A stretch of 64,000 nucleotides of DNA, taken from Psammoneis japonica. Its lineage: Eukaryota. This document shows positions 1-54,860 of this stretch, in pieces. Made by a program: the position numbers and the translations under genes. Position 1 is the stretch's first letter, and the number at the start of each line of letters is the position of its first letter. The stretch lies in assembly GCA_008632985.1 (NCBI GenBank), contig QPGO01000136.1, positions 124,001 to 188,000 of the forward strand, given 5' to 3'. A model generated the notes under the pieces. The model was not told where the DNA came from. It saw only the letters and a program-made list of their open reading frames with translations, and did not search any database.

Positions 1-39
1 TTCCTGATCTGCCCAGGACAACATGATGGTGCTGTTTGC

Positions 40-1227
40 ATGGGATCACTCTCCTTCACGAGGTTGCGCTTCTCCCTCAAGGACATTGCGTGGGCCGCAC
101 TGGATTTCGGCTGTGAAACAAACAATGAAAGCCAGCAGCACTTCCTCGATGGGCCCAAGGAAGTGCAAGCAAAAGAACTCGTCAATCTTGACTGCCATTT
201 GTGCATGTCAGGAGGATGCAGTGCTCTGTCCAATGCTGAATGGATGATCACCCACATTGCCGTCATGAGTGGATCGACTGAGTGTGATCTCATGGCAGCC
301 TCAGCTAATGTGAAGAATGTCAATTCGAACGAAGCAAAGAAAGTGTGCGCTGAGTGTGGAGGGCGAATGCGTCTGGCACTTGATCATTCAAATGATGAGG
401 CGGCAATGATTTCTTGGGCTGATGGCATTGTTGCGGATCTGTCAGAGAGTGCATGTGCTTTGGCAATGATGGAGTCAGAGTCTCGAACATCTTTTGACAG
501 CAAAGACAGATTGCGGACCATGTTCAGGAGAAGCAGTGGGCGACCTCTTCAACTCGTGGATTCACAGCATTTGCTTTCAAAGCTTCGAGACCGCTTGACT
601 TTTTGTGACTTGCAAAAAGCTTGTGGAGTTGCCGAGGCACTGGATTCTCGTACGATGATGGGAGTCCTTTTTGAGGAAATCATGCACAACTGGTTTCAAC
701 GAGTCAAGCCGACCCCGGCATCCAGGGTTTTGCATTCCCCTGGGGGGGAGACAGGAAAAGCTGGTGCCGCAGACCTGTCCAAAGAGCTGGCCTGCTGGAG
801 TCCAAGTGTGCCAAACTTTGCCAATGTTGGTGCTGCGTTTGTGGACAAAGCAACCGTTCTGCATTTTTTTTGTGCCCAGTGTGCCACAAGTGACTCTCAC
901 GAGTTCAACGCCTTGACGTTTGACACGGATTTCATCCTCGAACTGAAAAAGAGCTTCGTCAAAGGATTCCAAGAGATTGTGGTGTGTTTCACAGTTCCAT
1001 CTGGGGTGATCTTTGACGTTGAGGCACATGACGCTTTTGAGTGTGACAACGACTCAACAACCTGTCGGTTTGAGGTTGTTCATTTGAAATTCAGCAATGA
1101 CAACAAAATTGGTGCATTGGCCAGCGCCTTTCCCTTCTTGTCACAGGAAAAATTCTTGGGTTGCAGAGGTGCGCACGCTGCAGGCCGTGATTGTGAATGT
1201 GCCCACAGATCTGATTGCACCAAATGA
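40..1227 (+). pseudogene. Decayed Crinkler(CRN)-like protein, C-terminal part (restriction-endonuclease-like domain); 5' end probably outside the window
   Basis: 395-aa ORF with no Tyr and excess Cys/His. Motifs MGVLFEEIMHNWF and CWSPSVPNFANVGAAFV..LHFFCAQCATSDSHEFN resemble the YWxPxxxNFxxIDA...QxTxxxxH motif of CRN-type REase domains with Y->C changes. Lies in a TpA-depleted block. Confidence 0.45.
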
Positions 1228-1299
1228 ATGTGATGATGAAGAACAGATGGCAGCTGTCCGACGCACTGACAGAAAGGCGATGGAAGGATGCAGGCTGTG

Positions 1300-3250
1300 C
1301 TGGACTGGGGACTGAGTGAGACATGGGACTGTCTTCCAATGCCCTCCCTCGAGATGGAGCCAGTTGATTCACAATGATGTGAAAAAACTTGCAAGATCTT
1401 GCAAACCTTGGAAGAAAGTGCAATGGAGCACATTCCGTCAAGATTCTGAGCTCCTGCCACAAGAACATTGCCATCGTCAGACAAACTCAAGTGACCATCA
1501 CCAAGGTCACTGGAACTGCCTCGCCTGACAACATTCTGGCCATGCTGAACCCAGCTGCTTCCATCAAGTTCGCACACTCGGACAAATGCCTGAGTCTCAA
1601 CCGCCAGCATCTGATCCAATGGCTCCAACAGCTAAATGCAGACCTGTCAGCAGAAAGTTCTATGCTGGCACCATGCCAACTTTCGAAACTCTCTCTGTCC
1701 AGGTCTTGACCGCGCTGCTTCCAACTGTTGTTGTCAAAAGTCAAAAACTTTGACCCATCCAAAACCGTTGGCACCCCAAACGATTCCGACGGCGACTCTA
1801 CGTCCAGTGGAATCAAATGCAATGGATCGACATCAAGGGCAAACTCGCCCTCCAGGTCCTTACCAAGTTGGGTCCATTGGCTTCTAAAAGGGCAAATCCG
1901 AGCATGTCCGGCGTCCAACCTTCCCTGAGGATCGCCGAGGTGGGCAGTCATGGCCATGGCATGTCCGGTGCTAGACAAAGCCACGGCCCACCCAAATTCA
2001 TTGCCAGGTGCTGTGCCATTGACAGGCGAGCCCATGTTCTCCCACTCATCTTCTTCGGGCTCCTTGAGCTCGAAAACTGGGCTTGTCCAGTTTGCTGTGC
2101 AAAGTTCCTTGCACCGACGGCGACCCTGTTGCCATCACCACTCAGGGACATGTGGTGACCAAAGCCGGAGCCTTCATCTTCACGAATTGCCGGACCAAGT
2201 TAATCCCACTGGTCGCCATTCCGCTTGCATGCAATGACGGTTTGGCCTTGGTTTGCCCCCGTTGCAATTGTGCTGCCATCGTGGGATGCCTTGACACATG
2301 CCACAAGTCGACTTCCTTCATCAATGCCTTGGATTGTCTGCATGATGGCCACTTCCGCTGGACCAAGCGGCGTGGGTGTGGGAGATGGAGTTGGCATGTC
2401 GGTTTCTTTCACCGTGCCTTTCGGTGTGGGAGATGGTGTTGGCAAGACTGTGGGGGTTGGTGTTGGTGTGTCAGTTTCTTTCATCGTACCTTTCGGTGTG
2501 GGAGATGATGGTGTTGGTGAGACTGTGTCTTCCTCCAGTGTGATTGATGATGTTGGCGTGGCGGTTGCTTCAACCGTGAGAAAGACAGTGACAGCTGATC
2601 TGCAGATTGGGTGCCAATTGCTGCACCTGCCACTGCCCCAATGGCTGCAATCAGTGCAATGATTCCAGAAGTGACGAACCACCTGCGCCTCCACAATGGA
2701 GTCTTGGCCCTCTGGTCAGTGTTTTTTCTCTCATCTGGGAGTCTGCTCTCCCTGACCAAACCCTCTTCTGCTGTGTCATCTACAGCCTGTGCAGTGACAG
2801 CTCAATGAAGCACATCTTAGACTTCTTGCCCAATTTTGCAGTGAAGCTCTTGGCCAGTTTCATTCGCCAAATCCTCATGTGTGACCGCATGTGCGACTGC
2901 AGTCTGAGGACAATCAGAGTTGGTTGAAAGGTTGTCTCGAGAGGCATCACAGAGATTGGGGCCTGCAATGGCATGAGCACCTGCTTGCGCATTAAATGAT
3001 GCATTTGCTTGCTGCGTTCTTCCATCAACGGATGAGTTGTGCTGGCCACTGACTTGAGCGCCAACCACGGAACTCCGCGGCGCTGGCAGCACGGGCCTCA
3101 GCAGCAGAGTGAGCAATGACGCACTTAAAGAACTTTCATTTTGAGGACCACGTGAGCATGGTGTCAGTCTGCTGGCCTTCTTCTTCTCTGCTTCTTTCAA
3201 AGCTTCTGTGTCGGTCTTGTCTTGTTGGCTTGCTTGACAGCGTGTGCCAC
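1300..3250 (-). pseudogene. Decayed type II membrane protein with FG-GAP/integrin-alpha-like beta-propeller repeats and a Thr/Pro linker
   Basis: Pieces in several frames: N-terminal QAGAHAIAGP, TM helix WFVTSGIIALIAAIGAVAGAAIG (about 2610-2680), TPTPSPTP repeats (2370-2530), and repeats MSLSGDGNRVAVGA, GNEFGWAVALSSTG, WTQLGKDLEGE, WKQRGQDLDRE, LSLSDDGNVLVAGA. Multiple frameshifts, no Tyr. Confidence 0.65.
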
Positions 3251-4688
3251 TCTCACATTTGGCCATGGCACATCTCTCCCTCGAAGGAGGATGCATCATC
3301 ACATTTACCCACACAATGCAATCCCATGCCTCAGCAGTGTCGGAGTTTGTGCTTTTGTTCATGGTGACAACTTCAAAGCAAAGGGCATTGAAATTCTGAG
3401 CAGAGGTGTTCATGTGATCATGAAGCCTTGTGACACAGTTTTTCCCATTGCACTCATGACAAGAGAGAGACCTCCACCTTGCACCAGTGAGACACACAAA
3501 ATTTTTTCTCTTGCTGGGTCTGCCCCGTTTCTGCACACCAACAGCAGCATCAAGCTCAGTCCACTTGCAATGGCTTTGGCAAACAACTTCTTCAGTGCCT
3601 TTTCTGCCTGCTCTTGTGCAATGCTCTCAAGAGGGTTTTGTGTGTGAGGCCAAGACTTTGTTCCTCAAAGCCCTTTTTCTTTGCACCCAGGTAGAGATCT
3701 TCTCTCACTTGTCAGCCAATGCACTCATTGAAGGTGTTTCATGCCCATTCATTTGAGTTTGTGCAAGAACCTTTGTCAAGTTGTCTGCTGGTGCACGCGC
3801 ACTTCTTGCAGAGAAAAGAGAGCTCTTTTCCTCTTCTGCTGGGAGCCTTCAATTTGCTCTCTTGTCTTCTGAGCTGCTTCTTTGCTTTTCTTTTTTTGCT
3901 TGAAATTCTTTGGCTGCGCTGCTGCTGACTGCATCTGAGAATGCTGATGAAGCCAGCAATTTCTGCCACACTGAACGAGACACAAGAGACTGCCTCACAA
4001 CCTTCAAGAGAGTCTTTGCAACATTCATTGTGTTTTGGAAAGGAGGAGGAGCCTGCCCCATTTTTGCTGGAGAGGGTTTCCTCTTCTGCTTGCTCAAAAC
4101 ACTGCTCTCTTGCCACAGGCTTGATGGTCAACAAACATGACAAAAGGCTTGAGAGTGCAAACACCAAATGCCTTTTTTGTGCATGTGGGCTGCATCCATC
4201 CTCTGCTGGTGGACTGTGCAGCATCATGCTGCCATGCCAGCACACAGGTGCCGTGTCTGCACATGAAATTTGCTTTGGTGGGGTGCAAAGCATCAACCAG
4301 GAGGCGGGGGGGTTGTGGTCTTGGCCCCGCCTCTTCTGGCATTGCGCACACAGCAGCCAAGCTCTTTCTTGGCTGACTGGGCACACCACGCTTGGCCGGA
4401 GAGCCAATGCTTTCATCCAAAGAATCTTGATCTTGGAGTTCACGTTTGGCAGGTGTTTTGAGTTGAGGAAGCACTTTGCATCTTTTGAGCTGCACATGGT
4501 TCTTCAAGCTTGCCCCCCTCTTGTCTTGCCGTTGAACACAAAAGCGCGCATGAGCGGCGAGCAACAACAACTGCGTCGCGTGAAGCGCAAAAGCAGTGGA
4601 AGTGTCTTTGTTCAGAACCGCCACTCTTTGGCAGCAGCAGTGGCAGCAGCAGCAGCATGGCATTTGCGACTGCTCATGCTGTCCAGGT

Positions 4689-4867
4689 TGCAACGACAGC
4701 ACACCGTGGTCTGTCCATCGTCAGACCAGAGCCAGAAGGAAGTGACGTAGAGAGTCCAGGAGGCTGACACCATGCCTTGACACCTTTGAACCTGGTGTCA
4801 TGTCACGAGGCTCTCTGTCCACTCACAATTCGGCAACCATCCACATTGACAACATGCCCACGTTGTG
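4689..4867 (+). repeat. 5' LTR (mutated copy)
   Basis: tgcaacgacagc...cccacgttgtg. Aligns with 14258-14447 with 10 substitutions and 4 indels. Confidence 0.95.
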
Positions 4868-4882
4868 TGGAATCCCACCCGG
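4868..4882 (+). promoter_or_regulatory. Putative primer-binding site
   Basis: TGGAATCCCACCCGG directly follows the 5' LTR and starts with TGG (complement of tRNA CCA). Cognate tRNA not identified. Confidence 0.6.
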
Positions 4883-4920
4883 TGGCAGCTGTCGAATCTG
4901 TCAGCTCTGTCTGTTGAGTG

Positions 4921-7900
4921 ATGAGCATGGTGCATGGTTGTGGCGGCCGTGGAGCCGGCAGGGTGAACCGCCCGTCGGATTTGACTTTGGATTTAGCACA
5001 AGAGCATTGGAATGATTGCACTTTCCAGGTCCCAGCAAAGCCGGACAAGTTGTCCTCCTTGAGTGTTCAGTGCCGTGAATGTTGTTTCCAACAGACTCTT
5101 TCCGGCATCTTGAGCAATGCAACAGCCGGGTCTCAGACAAAGCTTGAGATGCTGTTGAGTCACTTCGACTGTGCACATCTTCCCCAAGAAGTGAACGGTG
5201 CGTTAGAGCGTTCACATGACAACACGGCAGGCGTTGACAAGCCTGTTGTTGCCATGGAGGCGCCGGCGGGTGCATTCACACACTCCGACCCGGCAATCCA
5301 GAACGATGTCGGTGAGCGAATCAACACACCGGTTGCGGGGGCAGTGAACATGGCAGCTGTGGTGCATCGTGCGTCATGCTGCTGCACCTTCAAGTTGACG
5401 GTTGACGCATGTGCGGCCGCGCAAGATTTGGATGCGGCCACTCTTGATGAGGTCGCGTTTCCGATCCAACAATTCAACGTGGCAGTCATGATCCTGCAGG
5501 TGGTGATTAACAACCCAGCAAACCCGGATGACAGCCGCAAGGTTCTCCCACCCGGGTTCACTGCCGATGTTGTTCTCAACCCGGTGCCATTCTTGACTGC
5601 ACTCAGGATGTGCCTCGGTGGTGCGGTTCCCACCCTGGGCCAATTAGGAAGTCCAAACAGTGCCTTGCCGGCGAGCTTGGACAGTTGTCATTTCAGGTGC
5701 AGTTTCATGTGCTGCTTCCATGAATGCCGCTTCCGGCTCACGCGGTTCTCACCACGGTCGGGATTTTTGGGGGACTTGGCACGAGACTCATCCTACACTG
5801 CTGCCGCCATTCAGAACCTGAAACAAGCCCAGTTTGATCCGGCCGCTGGAGGTCATGTGGAACTGTCGGCAGAGCAATGCTGCATCAAATCTGCCGATTT
5901 GGTCAGCCTGTGCGACCTTGCGGAACGTTGCCCCATCAATTTGGCTCAAGTTTTTTGGGCCAGCTTAAAAGCGGACATCCGCCAACAAGCCAATTCTCAA
6001 GAACCTCCCCATCATGTCCCTCCTGCTCCGGCCAATGAGACCAACACTCAAGCGGATGCACGCTTGCGAGCGGCATGCACGTCTGCGACCTCTTTCGTGC
6101 GGCAATTGCAACAAATCGAAAATCAAGCGCGTCGAGTCATGCGAGCACCTGGTCGAGGCCCCACGAGGGTGTTGGAAGCACTTCCCACAGATTCAGGTGT
6201 GCCAGAAGACACTGGCTTGCCTCTTCAGGTGCAGCAGGCAGACTGGATGCCGGGCGCGTGGGAATGTGTGGCACAGGACGAAAGCAATTCGTTCGTGCAG
6301 CCTTCGGCCCCCTCGTTCATGCTCGAAGACCCTTCCACTTGTCTCAGCGCGGCTGAAACGTCTCTCCAAAATGCCACTGGGACTGTTTGCCCTCCCATGG
6401 AATGTTGGGGATGTGCAGGTCATCCACGCAACCGCGCACGCAGGTTCGAGCACACATGGAGCAGTTGCCCCTGTCGCTCCAACCCTCAAGCCCAAGCTTT
6501 GGCAAAGAAAGCTTGCACGGCATTCATCGAGGCAAGGAAAAAGCGATTGACCCATGACAGTGGGACGGCGGCCCCACCAGCCTGGTCCAATCCTCATCGG
6601 GCTCCGGCACCTCCAAATCCCCCTGCAGCGGTCATGGTCCCCAGGCCGCCGGTTCCGGCATTTGCAGCGGTGCCGCAGAACCCTGGAGAAACGGCACCCC
6701 AAGAATCTAATTGGGAGGCGCAAGGCTTCCCCTCTGATCAAGCTGCGCAATTGGCATTGGCTGTCTCTTCTCCAGCCACAACAGCAGCAACCTGCAAGGC
6801 GTGTTTCCAGGCACTGTTGAGGCTGAAGCGCCAGAAGACTGCCCAGCATCCAGCCGAGATTGAAACCTTGACGCCAGAGGCCGATCAAGATGACCAGCCA
6901 CCTGTCTGCCACCCGTTCTTCTTCCAACCAAGGGTGTGTCAAACTCTTAAAGTGGCTGTTCGAGTGTCTGATGTCAAACTCAGCACAAGTCATGTCATGC
7001 CGCACACCAGTTTCCCCATCGGTGAAAAAGGGGAGGCGGCATTGACCGTTGTGGTGGATGCATGTGGCGGGCTCAACGCAGGTCGATTGGCTCATCATTG
7101 GAGCATCATGCAGGCCAACCCGCGGTTGATCGAACATTTCGCGTGGATCAAGGACATCCCCAGTTTCGACCCCTTCAGTGTCAGCGGGTTGGAAAAAGAC
7201 TCCACCACGGAGTTCACGGCGGTGACAGTGTGCAAGACGCCATGTCAGCTCAGTGGGCGACGGGTCACCATTTCGCTTGGGTTGGTGGAGACGGCGTCAG
7301 CGAATTCATTGCTGGATCCACCGTTCATCCGGGCGTCTAATTCGGCGCTGTTGTTTGACAGTGACAAACCAGAAATCACGCTGGTGCAAAAGCTTGGCAC
7401 GGCTCTTCAGCTTCTGTGCCAAGCACCATCATGCGCAGACAAAGTCCCGTCAAACCCAGAAGGCGTCCAGGCAACATGCAAGATGACGGCGGACGGCCTT
7501 CAAGCAGTCAATGAGGCAAGGCGCGTAGACTCGCCGGAAGCTCCCACAAGGGTGATTGCGACAAGACGACCGTCTCAACCAATGTCCTTCCGCAACCACT
7601 GCTTCCAGGCTTTGCAAAATGCCATTGATCGAGCAGCCGATGCGGCAGAGACCCTGGCGACTGTAAAGGTGTGCCGCGGCATGGCGGTGTCCTCCGACAT
7701 GACAGGTTTTTTCCAGTTGCCGCGGGATCCGGCGGACGACGAGTTAGATGCAGCACTCGATTCTTCACCATGTCGAGATGCGACCTTGTGGCCGGCATCT
7801 CCGCCTTTGCACTTTGAACCAGCTTGTCATGCGGCCTTTCAGGTGGGTGGCAGTTTAGTTCTGTTTCTCCCCTCCCAGCGCCCTGACCCTGGGCGACACG

Positions 7901-7992
7901 GCTTCTATCCCAACTTGTTAGAGCAACAATCAGGACAGTGTGAGCTCGACAGCCGCAAACGCACTCATGTCCAAGCACACCAGCAAGAATGA
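4921..7992 (+). pseudogene. Gypsy gag plus aspartic protease region (degenerate)
   Basis: About 1020-aa ORF with zinc-knuckle-like CWGCAGH...HTWSSCP and protease-like VVVDACGGLNAG. Only 2 Tyr. Ends at a TGA in the same frame as the following pol ORF (8017), so it was probably once a single polyprotein (CGA->TGA). Confidence 0.75.
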
Positions 7993-8016
7993 CAGCTGCT
8001 CTCCCTGGATCCACCG

Positions 8017-11000
8017 GTGCACCACCTGTCGTCGGCATGCGTGCAAGTGTTGCCGGCATTCCAAAAAGGCCTTTGGGGACAGGCGGAGCCGTGCGCATTT
8101 TTAGTCAACCTGCAATGCAGCGCCGACCAAAGCACAGTTGCTGCCACATGTGCCGCTGCTGCACATGCCACACATCTGGATTCTTCCGATGATTCATTGT
8201 CCACATTTAAAACTGCATCAACTGCATCCATCCATTCCTTTCCTGCCTCCTCCAACAGCAATCAACTGCCACCCAGGTCCATGCATCATGAACTGGTGGA
8301 ACCGGTGGTTCCAGTTCAACCTTCGCCCAATGCGCAATGCACAGTGCGGGCAGAAAAGAAAATCTGGAGACCACGTCTACCATCTCAGTGCGTCGACCCG
8401 GGAGACTGCCCGGATGTTCTGGATGGAATGGAGGTTGTCTTCAAGCAGCACGGGTGCTCTCTGTGCCGCGCCAAGGACCCTTTGCCCCCCAGAACGGATG
8501 TTGTTTTATTTGATCTGCAAAAACATCAGGCCAAACTCAACAAAAATGTCCAATGGCATGAATGCCCAGAAGAACACAAGCCTGAGGTGACGTCTGTCAT
8601 CAAGCAACATTGGGATTGTTTCTGCGAGGAAGGGCTGCGCAAGCATGTCCGCGGATTCTCATGCCATGTTGACACCGGTGCCATCGCCCCGGTGTGCTGC
8701 AAGCCGCCACGATGTGGCCCTCACGAAGCCCAAGTCATGAACAAGCTTGTCCAACATTTGGATGATGATGGACTTGCCAAGGTGGACGACGAAAGCCCTT
8801 GGGGTGCGCTTGTGGTGTTGGCTGCAAAGCCTCATCAAGAGCATGTCCCGTGGCATGAATGCATCTGGCAGTTGTGTGCATCACACCGGAGATTGAATCA
8901 AGTGACGCGGCTGTTCGCATTTCCGGTCCCACGATGCGACGATGCGCACAAGACATCCCTCCACATGCAAAGGTTTTTCTTGCCTTCGATCTTGATTGCG
9001 GGTGTTGGCAAGTCGTGTTGGATGAATTGTCAAGAGCCAAAACGGCTTTCTTTGCGCCCACAGGCAAACGATGTTGGACCGCACTCCCAATGGGGTTCAT
9101 CAATGCACATGCCATCTTTGTGGCCATGTCCTTGGAGCTGTGAAAGATGTGGAACAAAGAAATTGCCAAGCAACACCCTCAACTGCCAGCTCAAGCACAG
9201 GCAGGTGCAATCACAAAACATCGGAACCCAGACCAATGTGGAGCCAATGTCATTGTTGACGATGCATTGATTTGGGCAGTCCACCCCAAGGCCCTGTTGA
9301 CATGCTTTCGGGGGGTCTGTGAAGTCTTGATCTTCCATTGCGTCACTTTAAAACTCAAGAAATGCAAGTTTCTGTGCCCCAGGATTGAGTTCGTCAGCGT
9401 GGATGTCCATCCCCTTGGTGACTCTCCTGCCCTTTCCAAACAGGATGCGTTCCGCAACCTCCCCTGCCCGCGGTCTTGGAGTGATTTGCGCATTTTAATT
9501 GGAGTGCATGGCTTTCATCAAAGCTGGATTTACAACTTTGAAGCAAGGATGCTGCCATTCTGCAAGCTCCAGCTCGCGGCCCCCAAGCCAGGCTCGCTCT
9601 CGCTCCCCCAAGAACAGAGCCGCTTCAAGTCGTTGTGGTTGCCAGAACATCAAGCATTGTTCGAAACACTGCAAAAGGACATGGTGTCCGATCTCATGCT
9701 GGCATGCCCTGATCATGCACGTCGGTTCTACGTGAAAACTGACTGGTTGAAGGAGGCACTGGGCACAGTCCTGTGCCAGGCGGACGAGAAGGACGTGTTG
9801 GTGTTTGATGCGGAAATGGCAGAAATCGAAGGCGGCCCGTGTTTCTTCGACTTACATTGCAAAGGCATTCACCTCCACCCCATTCAGTTCCCATCACGCA
9901 CCACCACAGATTCGGAAAAGAAGTGTCACTCCTTTGTGGGTGAGATGTCCATCCCGCAATGGGTGTTTCCAAAATGGCAGAAATGTTTGGCAGGACGAGA
10001 GTTCACTTTGCTTGCAGATGTGAACAGCATGCGGGAGTTTGTGGATCATACAGCCAACCCACCCAATGGCCAAATGCAGCGATGGCTCCAAGAGTTGATG
10101 TCATGCTCCTTTGTGTGTGAACACAGGCTGAGTGAAATGGCAACAGAATGCAACATGCTCACGCAATGTGACACCGACACAGCGTCATGGCAAGAAAAGC
10201 TCCAGGACCCATCTCCAACTCCACAAAATGTCAGCAAGGTCACCGATGTCCAAAATGACCGGAAAGGGTCATCCACTGGGGCAGAAATGTGTCTCCCATC
10301 TGTCCACGTGATGGCGGCACCACCACCCACTTTTCGGACAGGACCGGTGATGCAGGTCAGACGCAAACCTTCTTGGCAATTTGCCTCCACTCTGGCACGG
10401 ATGGCAACTCCAACCCGTGCGGTGCTTTGTCTTGGACCGGTGTTGTTTCTGCTGCAAGAGGCATGTTCGCAGGCCGCAGCTCGGCCAGATGCACAACTGA
10501 CCATTGATCAAAGCCTCAATGCAAAAGCGCACCCGGGGTTGCAGCTCATCGATGGCCCACAGTTCTTTGATGCCGTGATTCATTCATCCACCCATTTCAA
10601 ATGCATTGATTCGTTCTTCGCCCTGTGCAGAATTTTGGACCCGCAGCCAACTGCGAAACTCAACAGCACGGCTCCACACGAATGGTGCGATGAAATGACA
10701 GGGCACGTAAAAGTCCTGCAGGCGAGATTGTTCCTAAGAGCGGTGGTGCTCTTTGTCCCGGCGGTGCTGCCGAATCTTGCAAAACAAATTCGCCAAAGCC
10801 TGCCCGTCAATGGCATTAATTGGGCGATCCGGTCCTTTTGTTGTGCCAACACTAAACATGGGGGCGCCATCAGACCGATCACACGGTCATTGTCATGGTG
10901 ACCTCGGCCACAATTGGGCAACTTCATCCAGGTGACAGCACCGAGGATCCAGCGCCAATTTGTCAATCCTCAAGCCCTCCCCAGCAGCGTGTTCTGTTGC

Positions 11001-13760
11001 TGTGGAACACGAATTCTCTGCCCGGGTGGGCCGATTCATCAAGTCTCATTCGGCAACTAGACCACTGGATGGACATCCGGCCTTTTCCTCGGCATTTCCA
11101 GCTCCAAGCACAGTGTGCCCATGAAAAGAAGAGCCTTTTTATCAAGCCCTGTTCGCAATGTGGGATGAACAAGAAGCGCAGCATGTCGCCCCGTCCAGGT
11201 TCATGAGCTCCTGCGGTTGCTGGGCTTCTCAGAAGAGTCGATTGGGCCATTGCTGCTTTTGCCGGAGCAAATTCTCTTGCAAGGATTGCAGAGCACACCG
11301 GCAATCGCAGCAATTGCCCATGTGGCAGTGGCATTGTTTCATGCGGAGGCACCGTCACAACACACAGTTCCGGTCGACCCGGTGCACCCCGACACCGCCC
11401 GGTCTCCCCCGCGGGTGCCCTCGTCAGCGGCCGTTCCGTTCGACACAGTGGCAACCTTGCCTCTCCCGTTGGACAAACAATGGCGAGAAGCAACTGCAGC
11501 CGACCATGATCTAGCAGCTCTCCTGAAGGCAGCAAGGTCCAAGACAACACTGTCCAAACACAACTTTTTAGACAAGGCACACCATGCGGCCTGCTCCAAT
11601 GACCAACTGGAGGCAGACCAAGGCTTGGCATGCTGCTTTGAGTGCTCCAGGTCAGCTTGGGCACGGCAGCTTAGAGCATGAGTGGTGCGGCCCTCCCTGC
11701 GATGAGTGATCATCGCAGCGTGCCATGTGCACCCTTTTGCCGGTCACAGTGGAATCACCAGGACGCTCTGCCGCTTGCAAACCCGATTCTGGTGGCAGGG
11801 TGTGTTGCGCGACTTACACGAAGGCACATTCGCTGTCATGTGATGAACCGTGGTCGGTGGTCTTCTTAGATTTTTGGTCTCCCGGCCAAATGCCATCAAC
11901 GACAGGAGATGTCAAAGTCCTGACATGCTTGGATGGTGTGGCAAGCTTTGCCCTCGCCAATTTTTTCCAAGAGATTATTTCGGCGGAAGCTGCAGCACAT
12001 GCAGTGGCAGCCAAGTTCTTTGGTGTTGCAGGGTTGCCACGCCTCATCACAGTGGATGCAGATTCGCTCTTCATGGGTGTGTTTGTCCAGCTCTTCGAGA
12101 TCATTCGGGCCCCAGTGTTGCCGGCATCTCGCGAAAATCACCGAGCGGCACGAAATGAGCGGTTCCACCGACATTCAAATGAGGTGGCATGCATCAACAC
12201 AGCAGACATGCCATCCATGATGTTGTGGAAGCAAGCTGCACATTTTGCCTTGCATGCCTGGAACGCCTCACCGATTGACACCACTGACCTGCCCAGATCA
12301 TCAGTGGCTGTGGGACGTGAATTCCCATTTCCTCTCAACACAACGGCGCGGCCGGTGCATGACTCGGCATCCATGCCAAACCAAGCATTGGATCATTTTG
12401 AATCGATGGCACCACTCCTCTTCAAACAGAGGACACTTCTCAACATTTTAAATGAAGAACGACGGGCGAGACACATCGAATTGTGCAATGAGGGCATCAA
12501 ACAGCGGAGCTTCGCCCCAGGGGACATTGTCATCATCCGGAAGCAAGTCAAATCGGATCGAGCACGTGGCATTTCGGCTGAGCTGCTGTTTCGAGCACGA
12601 GGCCCACACACAGAGACACAGAGGAGCAGGTCGTGGATGACCCGGATGGCGAATCTGACGACGAGCTTCCCAGCGACAATGAAACCACTCCCCCATTGCT
12701 CTCTCGTGCAGTGCACCCATCAACTGCTGGGTTCTTCCGCAAACTGCACAAGCTGATGGCCGATTTGATGACCAAGGTGTTCTTCGTAGCATGTCAACCT
12801 CAAGAAGCCACGCTGCCGGTCCTGCGGATCGCGCAGGTGTGTTGGCCAGAATCCAATCCGCACCACGCGACGAGTCATGGTGTGTGTGCCATTCGGTGGT
12901 GGTGCCAGCACTTCCAAGATGCACACACCAAAGCCATGGTGGACAGTCGATTCTGGCCGAATGCGGTCAAGCAACGGGCAGACGAACCGACCGCCAGAGC
13001 ATGTGCCGGTCGACGCGTTCCAACCCCAGGTGGGACTCCGTGTGACATTGGGCCCACAGAATTCTGCATGCGAGCTCCGCAGTGCAAGAATTTAATTGAT
13101 GGATGTGTTTGTCTTCAACATCAAATAAATGGCCAAGTTTGTGGTGCAATTGTGCCTCTTGCCACTCGACGTTTTTGCAAATTCGCCTGCCCCACGCGAT
13201 TCTTAAGACATTGTAGAATCGCGCTGTAACAAAAAATGTCAAAAGTTGTTGGACGGATTGCTCAACAAGTGCACCGTAAAATGACACAAAATGTCGAAAA
13301 AATCACGTAGAAATCTACGTGCGCGACATGCGACGAGATTCAAAAAACTGTCGATGTCACAGTTCAGCAGTGCGAGGTCCCACCCAGACCTGGAGCGCGT
13401 CGGTCAACCCCAAAAAGGTGCCACGTGTGATTGCTGATGACAGGTTGACCATCAAGTGGCCAACTGTCACCTTCCCAATTGCAGAGCATTTTGCAGTCGG
13501 CCCGTTCGACTTCTCCGTGGTCAGAGCAACTCACGGTGAAAACAACAAGTCGACCAAGGAACCACACCACATCGCGGAGCCGCGCTGGGCACAACCAGAG
13601 AACAAGGCTCCTCTGTTCAACCTCGACATCTTGGACACACATCGAGTGCCTTCAGACCAGCTCAATTCTCCAGTGCCACAATTTGTGTCAACTTGCCCCC
13701 AGTGCTCAAGACATTCGGTGCAGTCTGAGGCAATTCCATGTCATGCGTTGTCGAGCTGAC
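8017..13760 (+). pseudogene. Gypsy pol (RT, RNase H, extra domain, integrase, C-terminal domain), broken by frameshifts, stops and a MITE
   Basis: RT: SPWGALVVLAAKP, HRRLNQVT, FPVPRCDDA, AFDLDCGCWQV, LPMGFINA, VIVDDALIW. RNase H: RRFYVKTDW, HSFVGE, FTLLADVNS. Integrase: ACHVHPFAGHSG..RFWW, PWSVVFLDFWSPG, LPRLITVDADS, NERFHR. C-terminal: RFWP..VPVNPKKV..VGPFDF. Confidence 0.9.
13012..13401. mobile_element. 390-bp non-autonomous TIR element (MITE) nested in the pol C-terminal region
   Basis: Imperfect TIRs GACGCGTTCCA..GGTGGGAC..TGTGACAT and ATGTCACA..GTCCCACC..TGGAGCGCGTC. 4-bp TSD GGTC (13008-13011 and 13402-13405). Removing it restores the frame PEHVPVNPKKVPRVI. Confidence 0.8.
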
Positions 13761-14242
13761 CTGCATCTTTGTGTCACTTTCCCCACGCATGCATGGGCAA
13801 CTTGCACCCAGCACACAGGGAGCAACTGTCAGTGACAGGCCAATCCTGGCATGCTCGCTCCTCCGGGGTTGCTGTTTTGGGTGCGTCGAGGTCAAGACAT
13901 CGTGACGGCACGAACGGCTCAGCACGGATGCACCGGTTTGATTCCCCCGCCATTGCCGTACGAACTGCAAAGGCCCGAACGATGCAACAGAGGAAAGGAG
14001 CTTTGTCATGACCCTCGGATCGCACGTGGGCTCCCGGGTGAGTCCCGGGCCGCACCAGGTCGGACGAGGAGCGTGTTGGCCTCTGTGCGTTTGAAATCCA
14101 CTCCCAAAGATGAGTCAGTCGTGGGTCCAGTCGTGGGTGCAATTCCATGGAGGAGGACATCCCGGCGCCCATCGCCGCCCCTCTCATAACATCCATCGGA
14201 TATTCGTGCTTTTCTCGACCCCGAGGAGCAAGGCTGTCTTAT

Positions 14243-14257
14243 AAGAAAAAGGAGGGA
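14243..14257 (+). promoter_or_regulatory. Polypurine tract of the LTR element
   Basis: AAGAAAAAGGAGGGA immediately upstream of the 3' LTR start TGTAACG. Confidence 0.85.
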
Positions 14258-14447
14258 TGTAACGACAGCACACCGTGGTCTGTCCATCGTCAGACCGGAG
14301 CGAGACGGAAGTGACGTAGGGCCCTAGCTATAGAGTCCAGGAGGCTGACAACCGTGCCTTGACACCTTCGAACCTGCGGTGTCATGTCACGAGGCTATCC
14401 ACTCACAATTCGGCAACCATCCACATTGACAACATACCCACGTTATA
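14258..14447 (+). repeat. 3' LTR (largely unmutated copy)
   Basis: tgtaacgacagc...cccacgttata. Near-inverted termini TGTAACG/CGTTATA. Retains TpA and CpG. Confidence 0.95.
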
Positions 14448-35005: not shown

Positions 35006-35739
35006 GCAGAAAAATATGCGAAATTTGTGTGACGAGCAATGCGTAGGAGCAATCAATCTTCAGCTAGCTAGATTAGTGTAGCTCGTAGAAGTAGCTAAAC
35101 GCACGATTGGAGCACTTCTCGGAGGATCAGGGGTCAGGGGTTGATGCGTTGCTTTTATCATCGTCCTTCGTCGCTCGCCGCTCATGTCTCGTGTCTCGTC
35201 GGAGGCCGTTGCGCGTGTTGCGCGCGGTCAGCGGCGGTTGGAGTGGGCAACGCAGAGGCCACACGCGAAAGAGAAACAACATGTCAGAGTTGTGTGGCCG
35301 GAGGTGTGTTCCCAAGCATTTTTCAAACTGGCTCTAAGAGGGCCCAACTAGCTACAGTAGAAGTAGCACGGCAAGTGGATTTTGATTAACAGCGTTTGAA
35401 ACACAGTTTCTGGATGCATGCAGACAGTGCAGAGAGGGCCAGCTCTGAAGGTGCGAGATGATGGCGCGCACCAACACTGCTGCAATGTTTCTTTTGGCAT
35501 GTGCCCTTGGCACAGAGCAAGATGGCACCCCCAAGGGAAGCAAGCCAGTGAAACAATTTGAGTGCTGTTGTGTTGTTCTGGCTGAGGCAACAAAAAGCTT
35601 CAAAGAGACTCACTCAATCAGCCAGAAACAACAACCGCGTCCCCCAAATCTTGTGCTCTCACACACCGCACAGTTCTGGAATGAACAGCTTTCTCTTTCT
35701 GGGCACACAAAACTCATTTGAGTTGGTCTTGCAGAGCAG

Positions 35740-36200
35740 TTGCCTCCATTTTGTGAGCAGTGCCAAAAGTTGTCATGATGGACCCATGTGTGGCCGATGT
35801 TTTTCCAGCAAAAAAAATGATTTCCTGCTGTCCCAGCAGCCAATCTTTGTGGGCAGGGCCAAAATGTCTTTCCCCCCAGCCAGTGCTTCAAAAGGAGTGG
35901 GACATGCAGGCAAACATGAGGTGCTGCCATCTGGAAAAATCAAATGCTTCTTTGAAGGTTCTGGCATGTTTTCTCCAAACCTGATTGCTTTTTAATTTCT
36001 TCAGTGTGGTGGTCACCTCCCTCACCCAAGAGAAAAGAGCAAACTTGCCCCCACCTCCAATCCAGAGATCATTGAAAACATGGCCCACTTGCTGGATCTC
36101 ATCTTTCCCCCACAAGGCTGCCAGCTTGTCATGGTCACTTTGTTGAAATGAGCTTTGTCCCAGCACAATGTGCGCCCATTCACAACACCAAAGCCAGCTG
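35740..36200 (-). pseudogene. Decayed partial paralog of the neighbouring flavin amine oxidase gene (C-terminal part)
   Basis: Aligns with about 39730-40250, e.g. tttgtcccagcacaatgtgcgcccattcacaacaccaaagcc versus tttgtcccagtagaatatgcacttgttcagaacgccaaagcc. The translation keeps AGFGVVN and FNDLWIGGGGKFALFSWV. Confidence 0.85.
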
Positions 36201-39200
36201 TGTTGAGCCACAGCAATCAACAGCACATTGCATCTTGTGAGCTGACACATGGGAGAATCAACATGTGAGAGTGTGATGGGCCAATTGTTGACTTTTTTGG
36301 CTGAAAAGCAATGGGCAAACAATTGAGTGTTTCAGCTGTTTTTCTGCAATCAAATGATTTCACAAAGCACAGCAAGGCATGGTGGGTGGAACAACACTTC
36401 TCTGCAGATTCCCTTTTCCATCATTGCAAGGCCACTTTTGCAGGATTGGGAGGAAGCACACTCCAAGCAGTGCATCTTCCCTGCTTGGCAGTGATTTGTT
36501 GGTGCCGTGATGCTGAACTAAAAAGCACTGGTCCATCCCAGACATTCGAGCTGCAGAAGTGTTTGGGAGAGCGCAAATCCACCAGTGATGTGGTGTCAAA
36601 GTCTTTGCAAGCCATTCTTTTGTTGGGCAGTGCCAGCCAATGCAACTGGCACATTGCTGTTGCAGGGTTGAATCAACAGTGCAGTCATCTTGACATCATG
36701 GAAAACAAGAGTGTGGCTTGAACAGAGTGATGCAAGAGAAGAAAGCTGCTTTCTAAAGCTGCAGCACATTGATCACATTGTTGTGATCTCAAGACAACAG
36801 GTGGATTTGTTGTGAATGTCTTGGTGCTTGCCAGAGAGATGTCAACAAATGAAAAGATTTCATTGAAGCTGCACAATGTCAGCCAACAAGCACTGTCATG
36901 ATGGAGATGCAAAATTGCTGACAAAATTTGCCAATGCACTTGTGGCTGTGTGGTGCATCAGAGTGCGCATTCCAGTGATCGAGACCTGCTTTCTCCTGGT
37001 GATTTTTTCCCAATCATTGTGTGAACAATTGACCTGTGAAACCTTGCCAGTTGTGCACCTGGCAACAATTTTTCAAATGTCAATGACAAAAATCTTTTTC
37101 CTGTGAAGCCCCGCTGTTCACTGTCAGAAGAAAACATTTCGCTGTGAAACAGCAACACACGGTTTCCCTGTGAGAACGCCTCCTGTGCCCTCTTTTCCTG
37201 CAGAACTTGACAATTGGCAGTGAATGGATTTTTCCTGTGTTTGGCAGAGATTCCAGGAGTTGAGTGCAATTTACACAGCGCATTTGACTCAATGTTTGTC
37301 AATGAACAAACAATTTCAGCTGTGCTGGGTCATGAAGTTTGTCAAGGAACACTGCTGCACTGCTTTGCTGCTGGCATTTCTTCCACCCACTGTGCCATGC
37401 TTTGGACCATTGCCAGATCTGCATTGCTTCTTGATCATCCTCATCCTTGTGCCCATCACTGTCTTCTTTTTCCTCTTCTTTGTCGTTGTTCTGCCACTCC
37501 ATTTTCTCTTCCTCGTCTTCCTTGTCATTGCTGGAAAGTTCTGTTGTTGCTTGTGTTCTTGTTCCTGATTCTGATGGTTCACTCACACTCTTCTCACAGA
37601 TTCCCTTGGCATTGTCTTCTGTCAACACAACTGCAGTGAACAAGCATTGTGTCAGCCGTGCCACAATCAACACCTTCTTGTTGTTGCTTCCTGCAGCGTT
37701 CACCTCTCAATGCATTCTTCCATGTTGTCTGGGCAACGGTGTGTTCCTCTTCATGTTGATGCATTGAAGATGCACGTTTTTGCCCAGGCTTTCGACAATT
37801 CTGCCCTCACCCACAAATGCGAGTCAAGTGCCTTCAGGCAGGTGGTGCCCTTTCTGCTGTGCTCTTGTTGGGCACATGTTTTCACTGCAAAAATGCTGAC
37901 ATCTCTGGCACCCTGCTTGCCACAGTGTGTTGTGCATGGGCAGCAGGTGACATGGCACTTTGGCATGCCCACATTGACCCCAAACACCATCTGTCTCTTG
38001 GGCTGCTGGCAATTTAATGAGATGCTGCACTGCCTTGTTGGTCTTCAGGAAGAGCCAGACATGCGACACTTTGCACACAACATGCTTCCTCACAGCAACT
38101 TTTGGCTCAACTCTGATGTCTTGTTTGCTCCATCTAACCCTGAGGTTGACTGGCTCATCCTTGCCACAGCTCCCCAGCCCCCTCTCCATTCCCAATGTTG
38201 TCAAGAGCTTTTGTGCACTGTGCACATGAGTGGCATGGCAGCCATGTCACACCACCTTGGGAATGGGAGAGATGGTTGGCACTGACACTGCAGTGAACCT
38301 CCACCACTCCAAATGTCAGTCTGCTTTTCTTGCTGCTGCTGCACCAGAGGATTGCTGCAAGAGGATGAACGTGCAAAGTGCTGATGGCACAGCCACTGGC
38401 ATCACATGAAGATGACAAGGGAGATTTCTCATGACCCATTGTGTGTGAGCCATCTTTCCCCCAAATCAAATGTGAGTGCACCCACTGAGAACAAGTGGCT
38501 GTTTTGTGTTTCATCAGCTGCTTTTGTTTGTCATCATGATGAAAAGTCAGTGGCAAGCCTGAGAGACAGCCTGATGACTCCCACCTCTCATCCTGCCCCA
38601 ACTGGCCATGCTGCGCCAGCTTGGGAGTGGCAGATGGTCAGCACCAGTGCTGGCAAACCTCTCCCAGCCCAGTTGTTGCCCTCCTGCTGCTGCGTCAGAT
38701 CACTGCAAAAGGATGAATGGGAATCAAAATGATGGCAGTCTCATCAGGCAAATGTCACACTCCAGATTCAGGCCAGAGGCAAATTCTTCTGCCTGAAAGA
38801 GAGAATGAGAACAAGGCTCATTTTCAGCTCTCTTTTTGCACCATTGTTGCCCTTTCTGCCACCAGTGCTGGGATTTGCCAGCACTCCCTTTGTGCAAATT
38901 GGAGCTGAGAACAGAAAACAAAAAATCTGGCTTCACCACAAGCCAGGCAGGAGCACGTGTGCACAGTCAAAATTCTGCATGGTGGCTGTGTGAGAGAAAG
39001 ATTGTTGGCAACACAACCTCTGCTTGGTCAGTGTGTGAAAAACTTGTTCCTCTCTCCCCAACATGTTTTTCTCTGCACATGCACAGAGAGCACCTGTTTG
39101 CATGTTCTTGCAACAAGTGAGAAAAAAGATTTTTTTAACAAAAGTCTCTTGTGGAAGAAAAAAGCTTGCAACACAACAACAGCCACCATGGTGATGAGTT

Positions 39201-39368
39201 CTTAAGTTTGCACAAGTTTGTTCAGTGCGTGTGTTTGTGTGTTGCACTTCTCCCCCAAATGATGCTCAATTGTTGCTGAGTTCGCAGGTGCCCCCGCTTG
39301 GTGCACAGTGCTCTCATTCCCTGCCTGGCAGGGGCTGCACTGCATCAAGAAGAGAGCTGAAAAGACAG

Positions 39369-39369
<1 letters not shown>

Positions 39370-39417
<48 letters not shown>
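39370..39417. repeat. (TG)24 microsatellite
   Basis: Perfect TG run. Confidence 0.95.
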
Positions 39418-39418
<1 letters not shown>

Positions 39419-39685
39419 AATGCAGGCACCACAGATCACATTGGAACATGTTCTGGTGAAACACTTGCTGAGGGGGGCGAGCAGAGTCAGTCACTGTCAG
39501 TTGTGTGCTCCTTGGAGCAAAGGGGGAAATGGCACTAGTGGGTTGTGTCAGCCATTTGAGGTGTTCTGTTACATTTAGGCTTTAGCACTTTTCACGATGC
39601 AATGAGGCGATTGGATAAGAAGGCAGGCAAGACATCCATGTGAGATTTAGGAGACATCTCTCTCCTGCCGCATTTGCTTTGGCCT

Positions 39686-41377: not shown

Positions 41378-43562
41378 TGTCAGCAGGTGAAGAGAAGAGC
41401 TACTTCTGTCGTCTGCTCGCGTTATTGAGTGACTTCTCACGGCTCATCTATCTGGCCTCTGACCTCTCCTGGCCGCCATTTTTTTTGTAGCGTAAAGAAG
41501 GAAAATCTTCCCACGTTTGAAATTTGGAATTTGACATACAGCTATGTTTACATTAATGACAGAATATTGACATTATTTATATAAATTTATATACTCGTAC
41601 ATGTGAGAATCAAAAATTGGCATGATCGAAAAATTCGGCGCCAACGCGCGTACTGTACGGTAGGTAATACTTCTACCGGTAGCCGCACACGGTACGGTGC
41701 TGTAGCCTCTGGCAGCTACTGCCGTACTCTCTCTAGCTAGCTAGCTCTACTCTAGAGTCCATGTGGAGCGCATTGGGGCCATCCACCGGCGCGTTGTGCT
41801 CTGATCATCGATTTTGATGCTCTCCTCAGGGATGGCCTAAATCAAGAAAACATCTGGTGCAGAATGACAAGTGGGAGCAAGACCCAAAGGGGCTGCCCCA
41901 CAGTTGTCGTGTGTGCTCCTCTCTCACCAAAAGAGAGCCCTCCTCCGCACAAGCTCGCTCTGCTGCCACTCTTTGCACACAGAGCTGGCACAAATTTGAG
42001 CATCATGTCTTTTCAGTTTTCAGCCAACAACCGGCATTTTGAACTTTGTTCAAAGTCAAAGATGCGTGCATCATGTCTTGCAGCATTTGTGCAGAGAACA
42101 AAAAAATCAAAATGACGAACAGCTGGCCAGCGCCAGGAGAGCAGGAGCAAGAGAGCTTTTTTGTGGGCACCAACTTTTTGCATGGCCAATGCCCCCTCCC
42201 AGCAGCTCCAAGTGCTGGGACCTTGTGCTGCTGGAGACTGCAGTGTTGATGTCTTTTTACACACACGTGCACATTTCCACACAACCTTGCATTTTGTGTC
42301 ATTTTGCAGTGCAGTTGTTGGGCGTGATCCGTTCAACAGCTTGCCGCATTTCTGTTTTTTTTTTTCATGCTAAAAAAGCAATTCTTGATGTCCACAGAGT
42401 GCTTTTGCAGAGTGCTGCACTGGCACAGGTGGATTTTTAAAAATTCTGAGCATGAAGAGGAGGTGCACAGCTGCACTGCAAACTTGGTTGCTCATTTGGG
42501 TGTTGAAGACAAACATGCACCAACTGCCTGGCATGCAAGTTGCAGAGCTTCTTTGCAAGATTCTCTGCTGGTCCAATTCACATGGAGCCCTTCCCATGGC
42601 TGGAGCACATCTGATGCAAGCCAGCTCCTTGCTCTGTCACTCAAAACAATTTGAGAGTAAAAAACAGCCAGACTGTGAGCGGGGTTGAAGGCTCTGACAG
42701 AAACCAGCACAAGGTCAAGAACAAAGAAGGCTAGAAACAAGAGCAAGGGTGAGAACAAGAGCATCAGTTGTGAGGAAGACTGCACATTCCTTTTTTTGTT
42801 GTTCATGTGGCAGTTTTCATCATGTCAGCAAAAGTGGCAAATGTAAAACCAGCTTGTTCTGACAAATGAGGGTTGATCAAATGGCGCAATCTGGGGGTGC
42901 AGTGCTGCTCCGGGGGGGGGGAGCTGGCGATTTTAAAAAGCCAGATCCAACAAACACACTGTGCCCTGTCTTTGCTCCAACAAAGCAAGTGACAAAATGC
43001 ACTTGATGAGAAAATCACTTTGGTGCAGCAGAAAAGCATCTCACCCAGCAAAATTTTCTCAGAGCAGCTCTCTGAGCATCACTTGTCAATGAAGCGAGGA
43101 TGTTTTTGAACACAACCAGTGCCAGCACACAAGAACAATGCCACAAGACAAGAAAAAAAGCAAAATGTGACCAAGGGTTTGGCTCTGTTTGATCTGACAT
43201 GATGGCTTCAGCGGACAAGCTCAAGGGCAGTTTTGCTTGAATTGGCAACATTTCTGTTGGCAGAAATGGAGCCACATGATGACCAATCCTTTGCCTGTGT
43301 TTGCACCAGACAAATTGAAAGTGGAGAGAGTGGATGCGCAATGTCTCATGGGCATTCATGTCTTGTAGAAAGGGACCAGTGCTCGGCAATGGTGGGGTCA
43401 TGTACACTTAATAACAAGGTTTTTGTCGAGACTTCCACTTGCTCTACTTCCAGTCCAGCGAAAGTATAACGTGATAGGTTTATGGTATAAAGAGGTGTCC
43501 TACTGGAATAAACAGAGAATTACCAGTTCAAAGAATTGTGGCACGAGAGGGCAAATCGCTGT

Positions 43563-54430: not shown

Positions 54431-54724
54431 GATGATGTTCGATTCAATTTGGGAAAACTGTGAGCATTGTAAGAGGTGAGCTCTATGTACAATAGAGAGA
54501 GAGAGCGTGATGGCCGAATCACTCTCGAGGCACGGACCGAATCGTCGATCTTCGTGTGCGAAATCTATGGCTGATCTGTGCTTGGTTTGAGTCACGCATG
54601 TTTTTTGTTCATCCGCGACTGACGTCAAGAATCACACGCGACTTAGAGCAGAATCATCGACACAATTCTGGCAGCATCAAAACTGTTGTTCGAAGATAGA
54701 GTCTTGGCCATGCTGCGATCCTCC

Positions 54725-54860
54725 ATCTGAAAGAAACATTGATGCAAGTGCTGGTGAACAATCAACTCTCAACTCTTTTGGTCTGCTCCACCACCCAGCC
54801 ACACACCGGGTGGACCATGAGGGTCGAAACAAAATGTGCAACATGACTGGTCCAGCCAAA
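54725..54860 (-). pseudogene. Decayed paralogous copy of the about 53930-54060 segment
   Basis: gaaacattgatgcaagtgctggtgaacaatcaactctcaactctttt...ccatgaggg...aaaatgtgcaaca versus gaacattactacgagcgctaatgaaaaatcaactctcaactctttt...ccataaggc...aaaatgtacaaca. Confidence 0.8.

Follow-up and report, generated by a model that had tools for sequence, protein, structure and literature searches.

The 64,000-nucleotide (nt) stretch of Psammoneis japonica DNA analysed here (contig QPGO01000136.1 of assembly GCA_008632985.1, positions 124,001 to 188,000 of the forward strand; hereafter the window) contains four sharply bounded blocks in which the dinucleotide 5'-TA-3' (TpA) is almost absent and TpG and CpA are in excess. 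The first and largest block contains the remnant of a P-loop protein gene, a Gypsy-type long terminal repeat (LTR) retrotransposon and a 392-bp element resembling a miniature inverted-repeat transposable element (MITE). In our judgement it is probable (roughly 80%) that the blocks record a TpA-targeted A:T-to-G:C mutator, which acts on silent foreign or repeat DNA after its arrival. The features of the window are listed in Table 1.

TA-poor blocks of the window

TpA was scanned as the ratio of observed to expected counts (o/e) in 1-kb intervals over the 64,000 nt, followed by a finer scan of the blocks. The o/e of the whole window is 0.40, and the distribution of the 1-kb values is bimodal, with 0.02-0.16 within the four blocks and 0.38-0.73 elsewhere. 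The finer scan placed the blocks at 1-14200, 35351-39600, 41751-43400, and approximately 54100-56950 (counted from 54101), which contain 66, 16, 10, and 18 TA, respectively; depletion is partial in the segment 54100-54700 that adjoins block B4. In the 40.7 kb outside the blocks, which served as the reference for normal sequence, the o/e values are 0.55 for TA, 1.01 for CG, 1.15 for TG, and 1.21 for CA; in the blocks they are 0.03-0.10 for TA, 0.15-0.74 for CG, and 1.5-1.97 for TG and CA. The numbers of CG are 673 in block 1 and 38 in block 2. A preliminary description of this DNA, made from the letters alone, had reported four nearly TpA-free blocks with strong enrichment of TG and CA, about 16 TA in 1-4688, about 15 in the gag region, and a gag open frame of 1024 amino acids (aa) with two Tyr. 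All of this was reproduced, and the exact TA counts are 16 in 1-4688 and 15 in 4918-7992.

No depletion is seen for AA (o/e of 1.19-1.31 in the blocks versus 1.17 outside) or TT (1.16-1.42), and AT is slightly reduced in four of the sub-blocks (0.74-0.84), though not in the Gypsy element (1.04), versus 0.93 outside. Among the steps containing A:T pairs, TpA alone is affected. The losses and gains are close to balanced: the deficits of TA (721) and CG (549) in the blocks sum to 1270, as compared with an excess of 1314 for TG and CA together, and the balance of each block agrees within about 25%, the Gypsy block (B1b) being the furthest off (330 versus 413). About 43% of the gain in TG and CA (549/1270) is the product of a parallel loss of CpG rather than of TpA.

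The borders of the blocks are abrupt, with transitions completed within about 50-90 bp. For example, TA is present every 5-30 bases until 35387 and next occurs only at 35993, and it is dense until 41753 and then scarce until 43366. The ends of the domains lie 200-400 bp from genes, except for one that is located inside the LTR element, at about 14190-14240. The genes between the blocks show normal TpA and are ordinary.

Loss of TA at the present sites

The two LTRs of one element are identical at the time of insertion, and the differences between those of the Gypsy element therefore arose after insertion. Twelve substitutions separate the pair over 200 aligned columns; 10 of them are at TA or CG, namely five changes from TA to TG or CA, three from CG to TG or CA, and two other losses of CG; the remaining two lie elsewhere. 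Derived states are found exclusively in the 5' LTR, in which five of six TA have been lost, and the 3' LTR, together with about 50 bases before it, keeps both TA and CG. By our estimate from this comparison, loss at TA would outpace change at other sites by a factor on the order of 100. The sequence AGGT adjoins both ends of the element.

The same direction of change is seen in the coding remnants. In an alignment of the reverse transcriptase (RT)/RNase H region with 31 homologues obtained from a representative search, none of five conserved Tyr is kept (they are now Cys, His, His, Cys, and Cys), and conserved Arg is kept at five of 11 places (the others are three Cys, one His, and two Gln), in comparison with 10/10 for Phe, 7/8 for Asp, and 4/5 for Trp. 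A second alignment with 10 homologues showed one of seven Tyr kept. The P-loop remnant belongs to a family of proteins of about 500 aa to which no function is assigned. In this remnant, all nine conserved Tyr are replaced (seven by Cys and two by His) and eight of 16 Arg are kept, together with 25 of 29 Leu and 14 of 15 Gly; its Tyr content is 0%, versus 2.2-3.4% in seven homologues. Conserved Tyr is thus kept at 0 of 14 places over two unrelated coding remnants, and the Arg replacements in them are Cys, His, Gln, or Trp. Four peptides singled out in the preliminary description as carrying Cys or His at Tyr positions (PPRCGPHE, HRRLNQVT, DCGCWQV, and KCHSFVGE) were all found, and the relatives read PRYG, SYRRLNQVT, DCGYWQV, and HSYVGE, respectively.

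Five pairs of paralogues were compared within the window, of which the three oldest are only about 62% identical, their alignments being partly noise. Changes from TA to TG or CA outnumber the reverse by 28 to 2, and those from CG to TG or CA by 49 to 6. Among the 42 aligned TA, one is kept, 18 have become TG, 10 have become CA, and 13 have become something else. The duplicated fragment of the amine-oxidase gene in block B2, which is 95% alike to its source in purine/pyrimidine code over 36104-36206, has lost its TA, whereas the intact gene next door retains them.

The MITE-like element, for which no Rfam match was found, offers a further comparison, based on publicly available reads from this organism (run X1, of unrecorded library type), with depth counted in exact 31-letter words. 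Summed over 3438 contigs, the word depth of the element's relatives in X1 is about 1e5, versus approximately 55 for single-copy DNA. The insertion in block 1 has five listed differences from the family majority, four of which are CG or TA changed to TG or CA. Among 13 listed variable places in the family contigs, eight are exchanges between TA and TG or CA (seven of them in a TAY context; Y, pyrimidine) and three are exchanges between CG and TG or CA. Around the heavily mutated copy in block B3, 481 nt (42200-42680) contain four CG and four TA.

Strands, sequence context and CpG

TG and CA rise about equally (1358 versus 1410 in block 1). A mild skew of opposite direction was observed in the two parts of this block, with 789 TG versus 928 CA in the Gypsy element (5001-14000) and 500 TG versus 412 CA in 1-4500; this could stem from a slight bias between the strands or from the composition before mutation. 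Strand-coordinated runs of TG versus CA were sought in 500-bp intervals and no clustering was found, the variance being 1.59 in block 1, 0.03-0.76 in blocks 2-4, and 1.55 in normal sequence.

The TA that survive are not a random sample. Of 87 survivors, 50 are in a YTAR context (R, purine), 32 are mixed, and five are RTAY, as compared with 223, 770, and 492, respectively, in normal DNA (chi-square test, p=2.8e-24). Relative to the density in normal DNA, survival is 1.8% for TAT, 6.6% for TAC, 13% for TAG, and 28% for TAA. The survivals of the three classes (0.41 for YTAR, 0.076 for mixed, and 0.019 for RTAY) fit independent hits on each strand (0.64 squared, 0.64 x 0.138, and 0.138 squared), which implies losses of about 86% (TAY) and about 36% (TAR).

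The loss of TpA is separate from the decay of CpG. In the Gypsy element, the TpA o/e is 0.10, approximately a fifth of the normal value, so that about 80% is gone, and the CpG o/e has fallen only to 0.74; both values are low in blocks 2-4. Decay of CpG to TpG and CpA accompanies the loss of TpA in the blocks and does not explain it.

The element that has been mutated so extensively is single-copy, as judged from its word depth in X1 (54.5, with 57-60 in the flanks). No second copy is apparent from the depth across its interior at 85% likeness, and one stray joint is listed at 8659. Because this single-copy element has been mutated and the originals of the duplicated fragments are untouched, homology between copies is not the trigger. 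The sharp ends near genes, including the one within the LTR element, indicate that the target is a chromatin or insertion domain and not sequence homology. These ends fit a chromatin domain better than mutation made before integration.

State of the Gypsy element

A change of TA to TG or CA never produces a stop codon where a sense codon stood, and it removes TAA and TAG. In the 9515 nt of the Gypsy element, 20 TAA and 17 TAG are present, versus 154 TGA. This is why a frame of 1024 codons is still open in gag, and dead elements of this kind are expected to retain long open frames. The frame shows that little else happened to the element and is no sign that it is alive. Gene callers may report such frames as genes, and homology searches miss such hypermutated elements: among the pol remnants, only RNase H passes Pfam. 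A search of 5.8 billion proteins and of 50%-identity representatives revealed no close unmutated progenitor (>50% identical) of the pol remnant.

In 51 of 51 metagenomic loci encoding relatives of the Gypsy pol, the TpA o/e is 0.48-0.93, the lowest 1-kb interval being 0.25. The family is thus not natively TpA-free.

A 231-aa RNase H-like fragment in public data (P0264) contains no Tyr, 6.9% Cys, and 4.8% His, and three Tyr-conserved columns are occupied by His, Cys, and Phe in this protein. It may, by its composition, represent another TpA-hypermutated retroelement elsewhere and is given as a lead only.

Proposed mechanism and alternative explanations

In the explanation that we favour, silent foreign or repeat DNA lying between genes would be attacked after it has reached its present site. 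A mutator would convert the A:T pair of 5'-TA-3' steps to G:C on either strand, giving TG or CA, at a rate far above background and until TA is nearly exhausted. The strength of the hit would be set by the base 3' of the A, TAT and TAC being nearly erased and TAG and TAA partly surviving. In the same domains, CpG would decay more slowly to TpG and CpA, the usual fate of methylated cytosine, methylation being presumed here. The likeliest enzyme would be one that deaminates adenine in DNA to hypoxanthine next to a 5' T, hypoxanthine then being copied as G; the adenine edited by tRNA adenine deaminases lies in a U-A step. We advance an adenine deaminase tentatively, at somewhat less than even odds, and we know of no natural polynucleotide adenine deaminase that rewrites chromosomal domains.

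The preliminary description had proposed an A-to-G process acting on both strands at TpA and aimed at transposon- and duplicate-rich DNA. The part concerning both strands, TpA, and the kind of DNA attacked is supported by the paralogue pairs (28 versus 2), the Tyr positions (0/5 and 0/9), and the similar rise of TG and CA. The assignment to A-to-G stands in the wider form of A:T-to-G:C at TpA, since A>G and T>C are inseparable by sequence, which likewise cannot name the enzyme, and about 43% of the gain in TG and CA comes from CpG.

This ambiguity leaves room for an enzyme with a thymine target, of the TET/JBP type or another type, that would modify the T of TpA in silent chromatin, the modified base being mispaired or misrepaired to C. 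The 5-hydroxymethyluracil of dinoflagellates reportedly sits preferentially at TpA. However, this base pairs with A and is said to be only weakly mutagenic, and among the first 15 of 711 matches of a literature search on 5-hydroxymethyluracil, TpA, and transposable elements, one paper contained all three terms, an unrelated study of elm trees. We regard this explanation as improbable, although it survives better than the others.

Slightly less probable still is error-prone repair, in which T:G mismatches in methylated DNA would lead to resynthesis of patches by a polymerase-eta-like enzyme that miscopies A:T pairs. Phase 2 of antibody hypermutation is a precedent for such a process, TpA and CpG are lost in exactly the same domains, and polymerase eta is understood to favour WA motifs (W, A or T), TA included. 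The undepleted AA, which is also a WA motif, argues against it, as do the poor scaling of TpA loss with CpG loss (0.10 versus 0.74 in the Gypsy element) and an outcome that consists mainly of transitions: 28 of 41 lost TA became TG or CA, with A>T and A>C counted together.

RNA editing before reverse transcription would fix ADAR-like edits of the retrotransposon RNA in a new DNA copy. The main block is indeed a retrotransposon, and a U 5' of the edited A is an ADAR preference (also bioRxiv 10.64898/2026.01.13.699255). However, editing of the sense RNA does not account for the nearly equal rise of TG and CA on the Gypsy sense strand or for the change of Tyr to both Cys and His, nor for a 3' LTR that escaped while the 5' LTR was hit. 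DNA other than retroelements is affected as well (the P-loop remnant, the duplicated gene fragment, and the MITE-like copy), and the ranking of 3' neighbours (T>C>G>A) runs counter to the preference of ADAR for a 3' G. We consider this explanation very unlikely.

Equally slight is the chance of an artefact, in which the true DNA would contain TA, perhaps with a modified base, and a long-read base-caller would have written G or C in unpolished repeats. The blocks are repeat-like and hence the hardest DNA to polish, and it is in the block that the listed differences of X1 from the assembly are concentrated. The run X1, however, reproduces the TA-poor sequence. It contains 89% of the sampled words from 34500-44000, and its contigs aligned to 1-20000 have a mean word depth of 54-66 over TA-poor block 1, versus 57-60 in the unique flanks; exact 31-letter words at such depth would fit accurate polymerase-based reads and not noisy nanopore reads. 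A single X1 contig (13398-14290) runs continuously over the border between TA-poor and normal sequence near 14190-14240. No differences from the window were found over 1-2050, and 19 were found over the 8224 letters of 4826-13048. Among 22 listed differences in block 1, with 145 further differences beyond the listing, 18 are transitions between CpG and TpG or CpA, which points to CpG decay continuing in this block; the remaining four consist of an adjacent pair of TG and CA exchanges (two differences) and two transversions touching CpG. X1 restores TA at none of the 22.

The adjacent pair is located at 6869-6870, where the assembly reads TG and the X1 contig CA. This is the pattern that would be expected of two alleles if a single ancestral TA or CG had been mutated on one strand in the first allele and on the other strand in the second. 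Over 2000-4100, a second X1 contig of similar depth is present, interrupted in comparison with the window by several short gaps and jumps of around 100 nt (75-186); it may represent another allele that has diverged, or a further copy of that part of block 1.

A native composition, in which the elements always avoided UpA and CpG and never mutated, is hardly credible: joint suppression of CpG and UpA with an excess of UpG and CpA is reportedly known in RNA viruses, but the missing conserved Tyr (0/14), the differences at TA and CG between the LTRs of one element, the same pattern on both strands and in non-coding DNA, the TA retained in the host gene and lost from its duplicate, and the normal TpA of 51 of 51 relatives all speak against it. 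GC-biased gene conversion, which would affect all A:T pairs and not TA alone, and ultraviolet photoproducts at TA, which would not be limited to domains, were also considered and dropped.

Several observations weigh against a TpA-targeted mutator, or against a simple form of it. No deaminase gene was found in the 64-kb window, and the enzyme is one that we infer entirely. The MITE-like insertion in the middle of block 1 keeps eight TA, all at 13093-13316 inside the element, in a surrounding segment of 501 nt (12950-13450) with 35 CG; either mutation at 13011-13402 has not been both fast and continuous, or the insertion is very recent. None of the 22 listed differences between X1 and the assembly in block 1 is a simple exchange of TA with TG or CA, and the process acting on TpA may be episodic or exhausted; moreover, X1 may be the assembly's own data. 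In the paralogue pairs, 13 of the 42 aligned TA turned into something besides TG or CA, and the diverged pairs show 107 other transitions and 97 other transversions away from TA and CG. The metagenome scan that yielded the 51 loci used a peptide pattern requiring Tyr or Phe, by which mutated copies were undetectable by design.

Comparison with known systems

In the literature on TpA loss in diatoms or other organisms, the only description of this signature that we found is a 2026 preprint on the chlorarachniophyte alga Bigelowiella natans (Mettrop et al., bioRxiv 10.64898/2026.01.13.699255), which reports hypermutation of TpA to TpG or CpA in integrated viruses. In its mutation-accumulation lines, 230 of 231 mutations in giant-virus and virophage regions were A>G or T>C. 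These changes were all on TpA, at approximately 6e-7 per site per generation, and hypermutation occurred in some lines only. Clusters in the B. natans genome that are poor in TpA and rich in CpA and TpG are enriched in RT and DDE domains, and the authors propose an ADAT2-like enzyme, citing DNA editing by ADAT2. Neither diatoms nor CpG are mentioned in the text excerpted from that preprint. The author of the preliminary description knew of no account of such a process in diatoms; none was found for diatoms in this literature, whereas the same kind of process has been described in B. natans.

The two cases share the change of TpA to TpG or CpA on both strands, its restriction to discrete regions of foreign DNA in which single-copy DNA is hit, and TpA-poor clusters, rich in CpA and TpG, that carry RT and DDE domains. 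By the cut-offs of the preprint (Rho TpA <=0.43; Rho CpA+TpG >=1.52), the blocks of the window would qualify. The differences are as follows. The host of the process in B. natans is a rhizarian and here a stramenopile; the mutated DNA there derives from giant viruses and virophages, and in the window it consists of an LTR retrotransposon, a MITE-like element, and duplicated gene fragments. Depletion here is near saturation (o/e of 0.03-0.10), versus 0.45 in the B. natans virus region. The 3'-neighbour rule (TAY hot and TAR cold) is a feature of the window. CpG decay alongside TpA loss is a feature of the window, unlike the B. natans account, and so, set against B. natans, are the sharp domain ends next to genes. 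The process is known here from its footprint alone, whereas the rate in B. natans comes from mutation-accumulation lines. These data support the view that the window is a diatom instance of a process so far described once, in an unrelated alga.

It is possible, though rather doubtful, that diatoms and chlorarachniophytes share one chromatin-guided defence based on adenine deamination of DNA, either ancient or repeatedly acquired, that reads 5'-T-A-Y-3'. Such a defence would rewrite either strand of silenced foreign DNA to saturation and would stop sharply at active gene promoters, sparing one LTR, and the enzyme responsible would amount to a naturally occurring adenine base editor acting on chromosomal DNA.

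Fungal repeat-induced point mutation (RIP) resembles the process in the window in that the host itself fills its transposons with transitions, leaving them with a marked dinucleotide signature and without coding capacity. However, RIP changes CpA to TpA, so that TpA accumulates, whereas here TpA is lost and CpA accumulates, in agreement with the opposite direction claimed in the preliminary description. RIP also needs duplication and mutates both copies, whereas a single-copy element has been hit here and a duplicated original spared. The opposite direction, the single-copy target, the intact amine-oxidase original, and the untouched 3' LTR rule it out.

CpG decay, presumably by deamination of 5-methylcytosine, is present in the blocks as a second process, as seen in the lowered CG and the changed Arg codons, but it cannot remove TpA. 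Methylation of diatom transposons has been described (PMC9998398), and the excerpted text of that paper on diatom DNA methyltransferases mentions RIP for fungi only. In the excerpted text of a mutation-accumulation study of Phaeodactylum (PMC6604790), the mutable steps are CG, CC, and TG, with a bias from GC to AT, and TpA hypermutation is not mentioned.

The enzymes TadA/ADAT2 and ADAR and the laboratory adenine base editors all have an A>G outcome and a T or U 5' of the target A, as would the enzyme considered here; ADAR differs in its 3'-neighbour preference, as noted above. Should the mutator be a DNA-active adenine deaminase, the laboratory editors would have a natural counterpart in it.

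A saturated TpA-erasing footprint in a diatom suggests that the process is common across the main groups of marine phytoplankton and that its targets include transposons in addition to viral inserts. The 3'-neighbour rule, the independence from CpG decay and copy number, and the sharp gene-adjacent ends add handles on the mechanism.

Features of the window

Table 1. Blocks, elements, and genes identified in the window
Feature	Position	Strand	Remarks
TA-poor block B1a	1..4685 (extends past window start)		TA o/e 0.06; CG o/e 0.47
Hypermutated P-loop protein gene remnant (3' part)	1..1224	+	59% identical to P0277
Gypsy 5' LTR, mutated state	4689..4866	+	TGTAAC>TGCAAC, CTATCC>CTGTCC, ATAC>ATGC; CpG>CpA/TpG
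gag-like open frame, 1024 aa	4918..7992	+	2 Tyr, 44 Cys, 29 His
Protease, reverse transcriptase, and RNase H remnants	7993..10901	+	Frameshift near 9000-9140; Pfam RT_RNaseH matches
Integrase-like remnant	11710..12756	+	D..D..E-like stretches by eye; no Pfam match; 0.29% Tyr
MITE-like element, 392 bp	13011..13402		26-nt terminal inverted repeats; very high copy; younger insertion in block 1
Polypurine tract directly 5' of 3' LTR	14243..14257	+	
Gypsy 3' LTR, unmutated	14258..14446	+	TA and CG retained
TA-poor block B2	35390..39570		TA o/e 0.03; CG o/e 0.15; TG/CA 1.84-1.88; without recognisable coding remnant
Mutated duplicate of part of amine-oxidase gene	35796..36206	+	In block B2; source 39786-40252, intact gene next door
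TA-poor block B3	41760..43365		TA o/e 0.07; CG o/e 0.25
Heavily mutated MITE-like copy	42262..42611	-	In block B3; many transitions versus 13011-13402 copy
TA-poor block B4	54700..56880		TA o/e 0.03; CG o/e 0.24
Mutated duplicates of 19154-19716 and 53930-54047	Within block B4		
Genes between blocks			MYND finger, methyltransferase, lipase, desaturase, cullin, FBPase, nitronate monooxygenase, amine oxidase, histone deacetylase, protease, permease

A Pfam search of 75 frames from the blocks and their flanks (E<=0.1) revealed no transposon domains in B1a, B2, B3, or B4. Block 2 includes a short-period low-complexity repeat at 39348-39456. The organism is classed as a raphid pennate diatom. Among the genes between the blocks, the delta-6-type desaturase is 80% identical to the protein of Fistulifera solaris and 77% identical to that of Phaeodactylum.

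Contigs of another run, X2 (kind not on record), map piecemeal to 14461-20000 and are almost absent from 1-14400. The first of them starts at 14461, just beyond the 3' LTR, and we draw no conclusion from this; if X2 is transcript-derived, the spared 3' LTR may sit at a promoter. Short tandem duplications of 120-257 bp, with identities of 77-89%, are located in or near the normal gene regions at 17305-17816, 28885-29151, 51164-51457, and 62668-62916.

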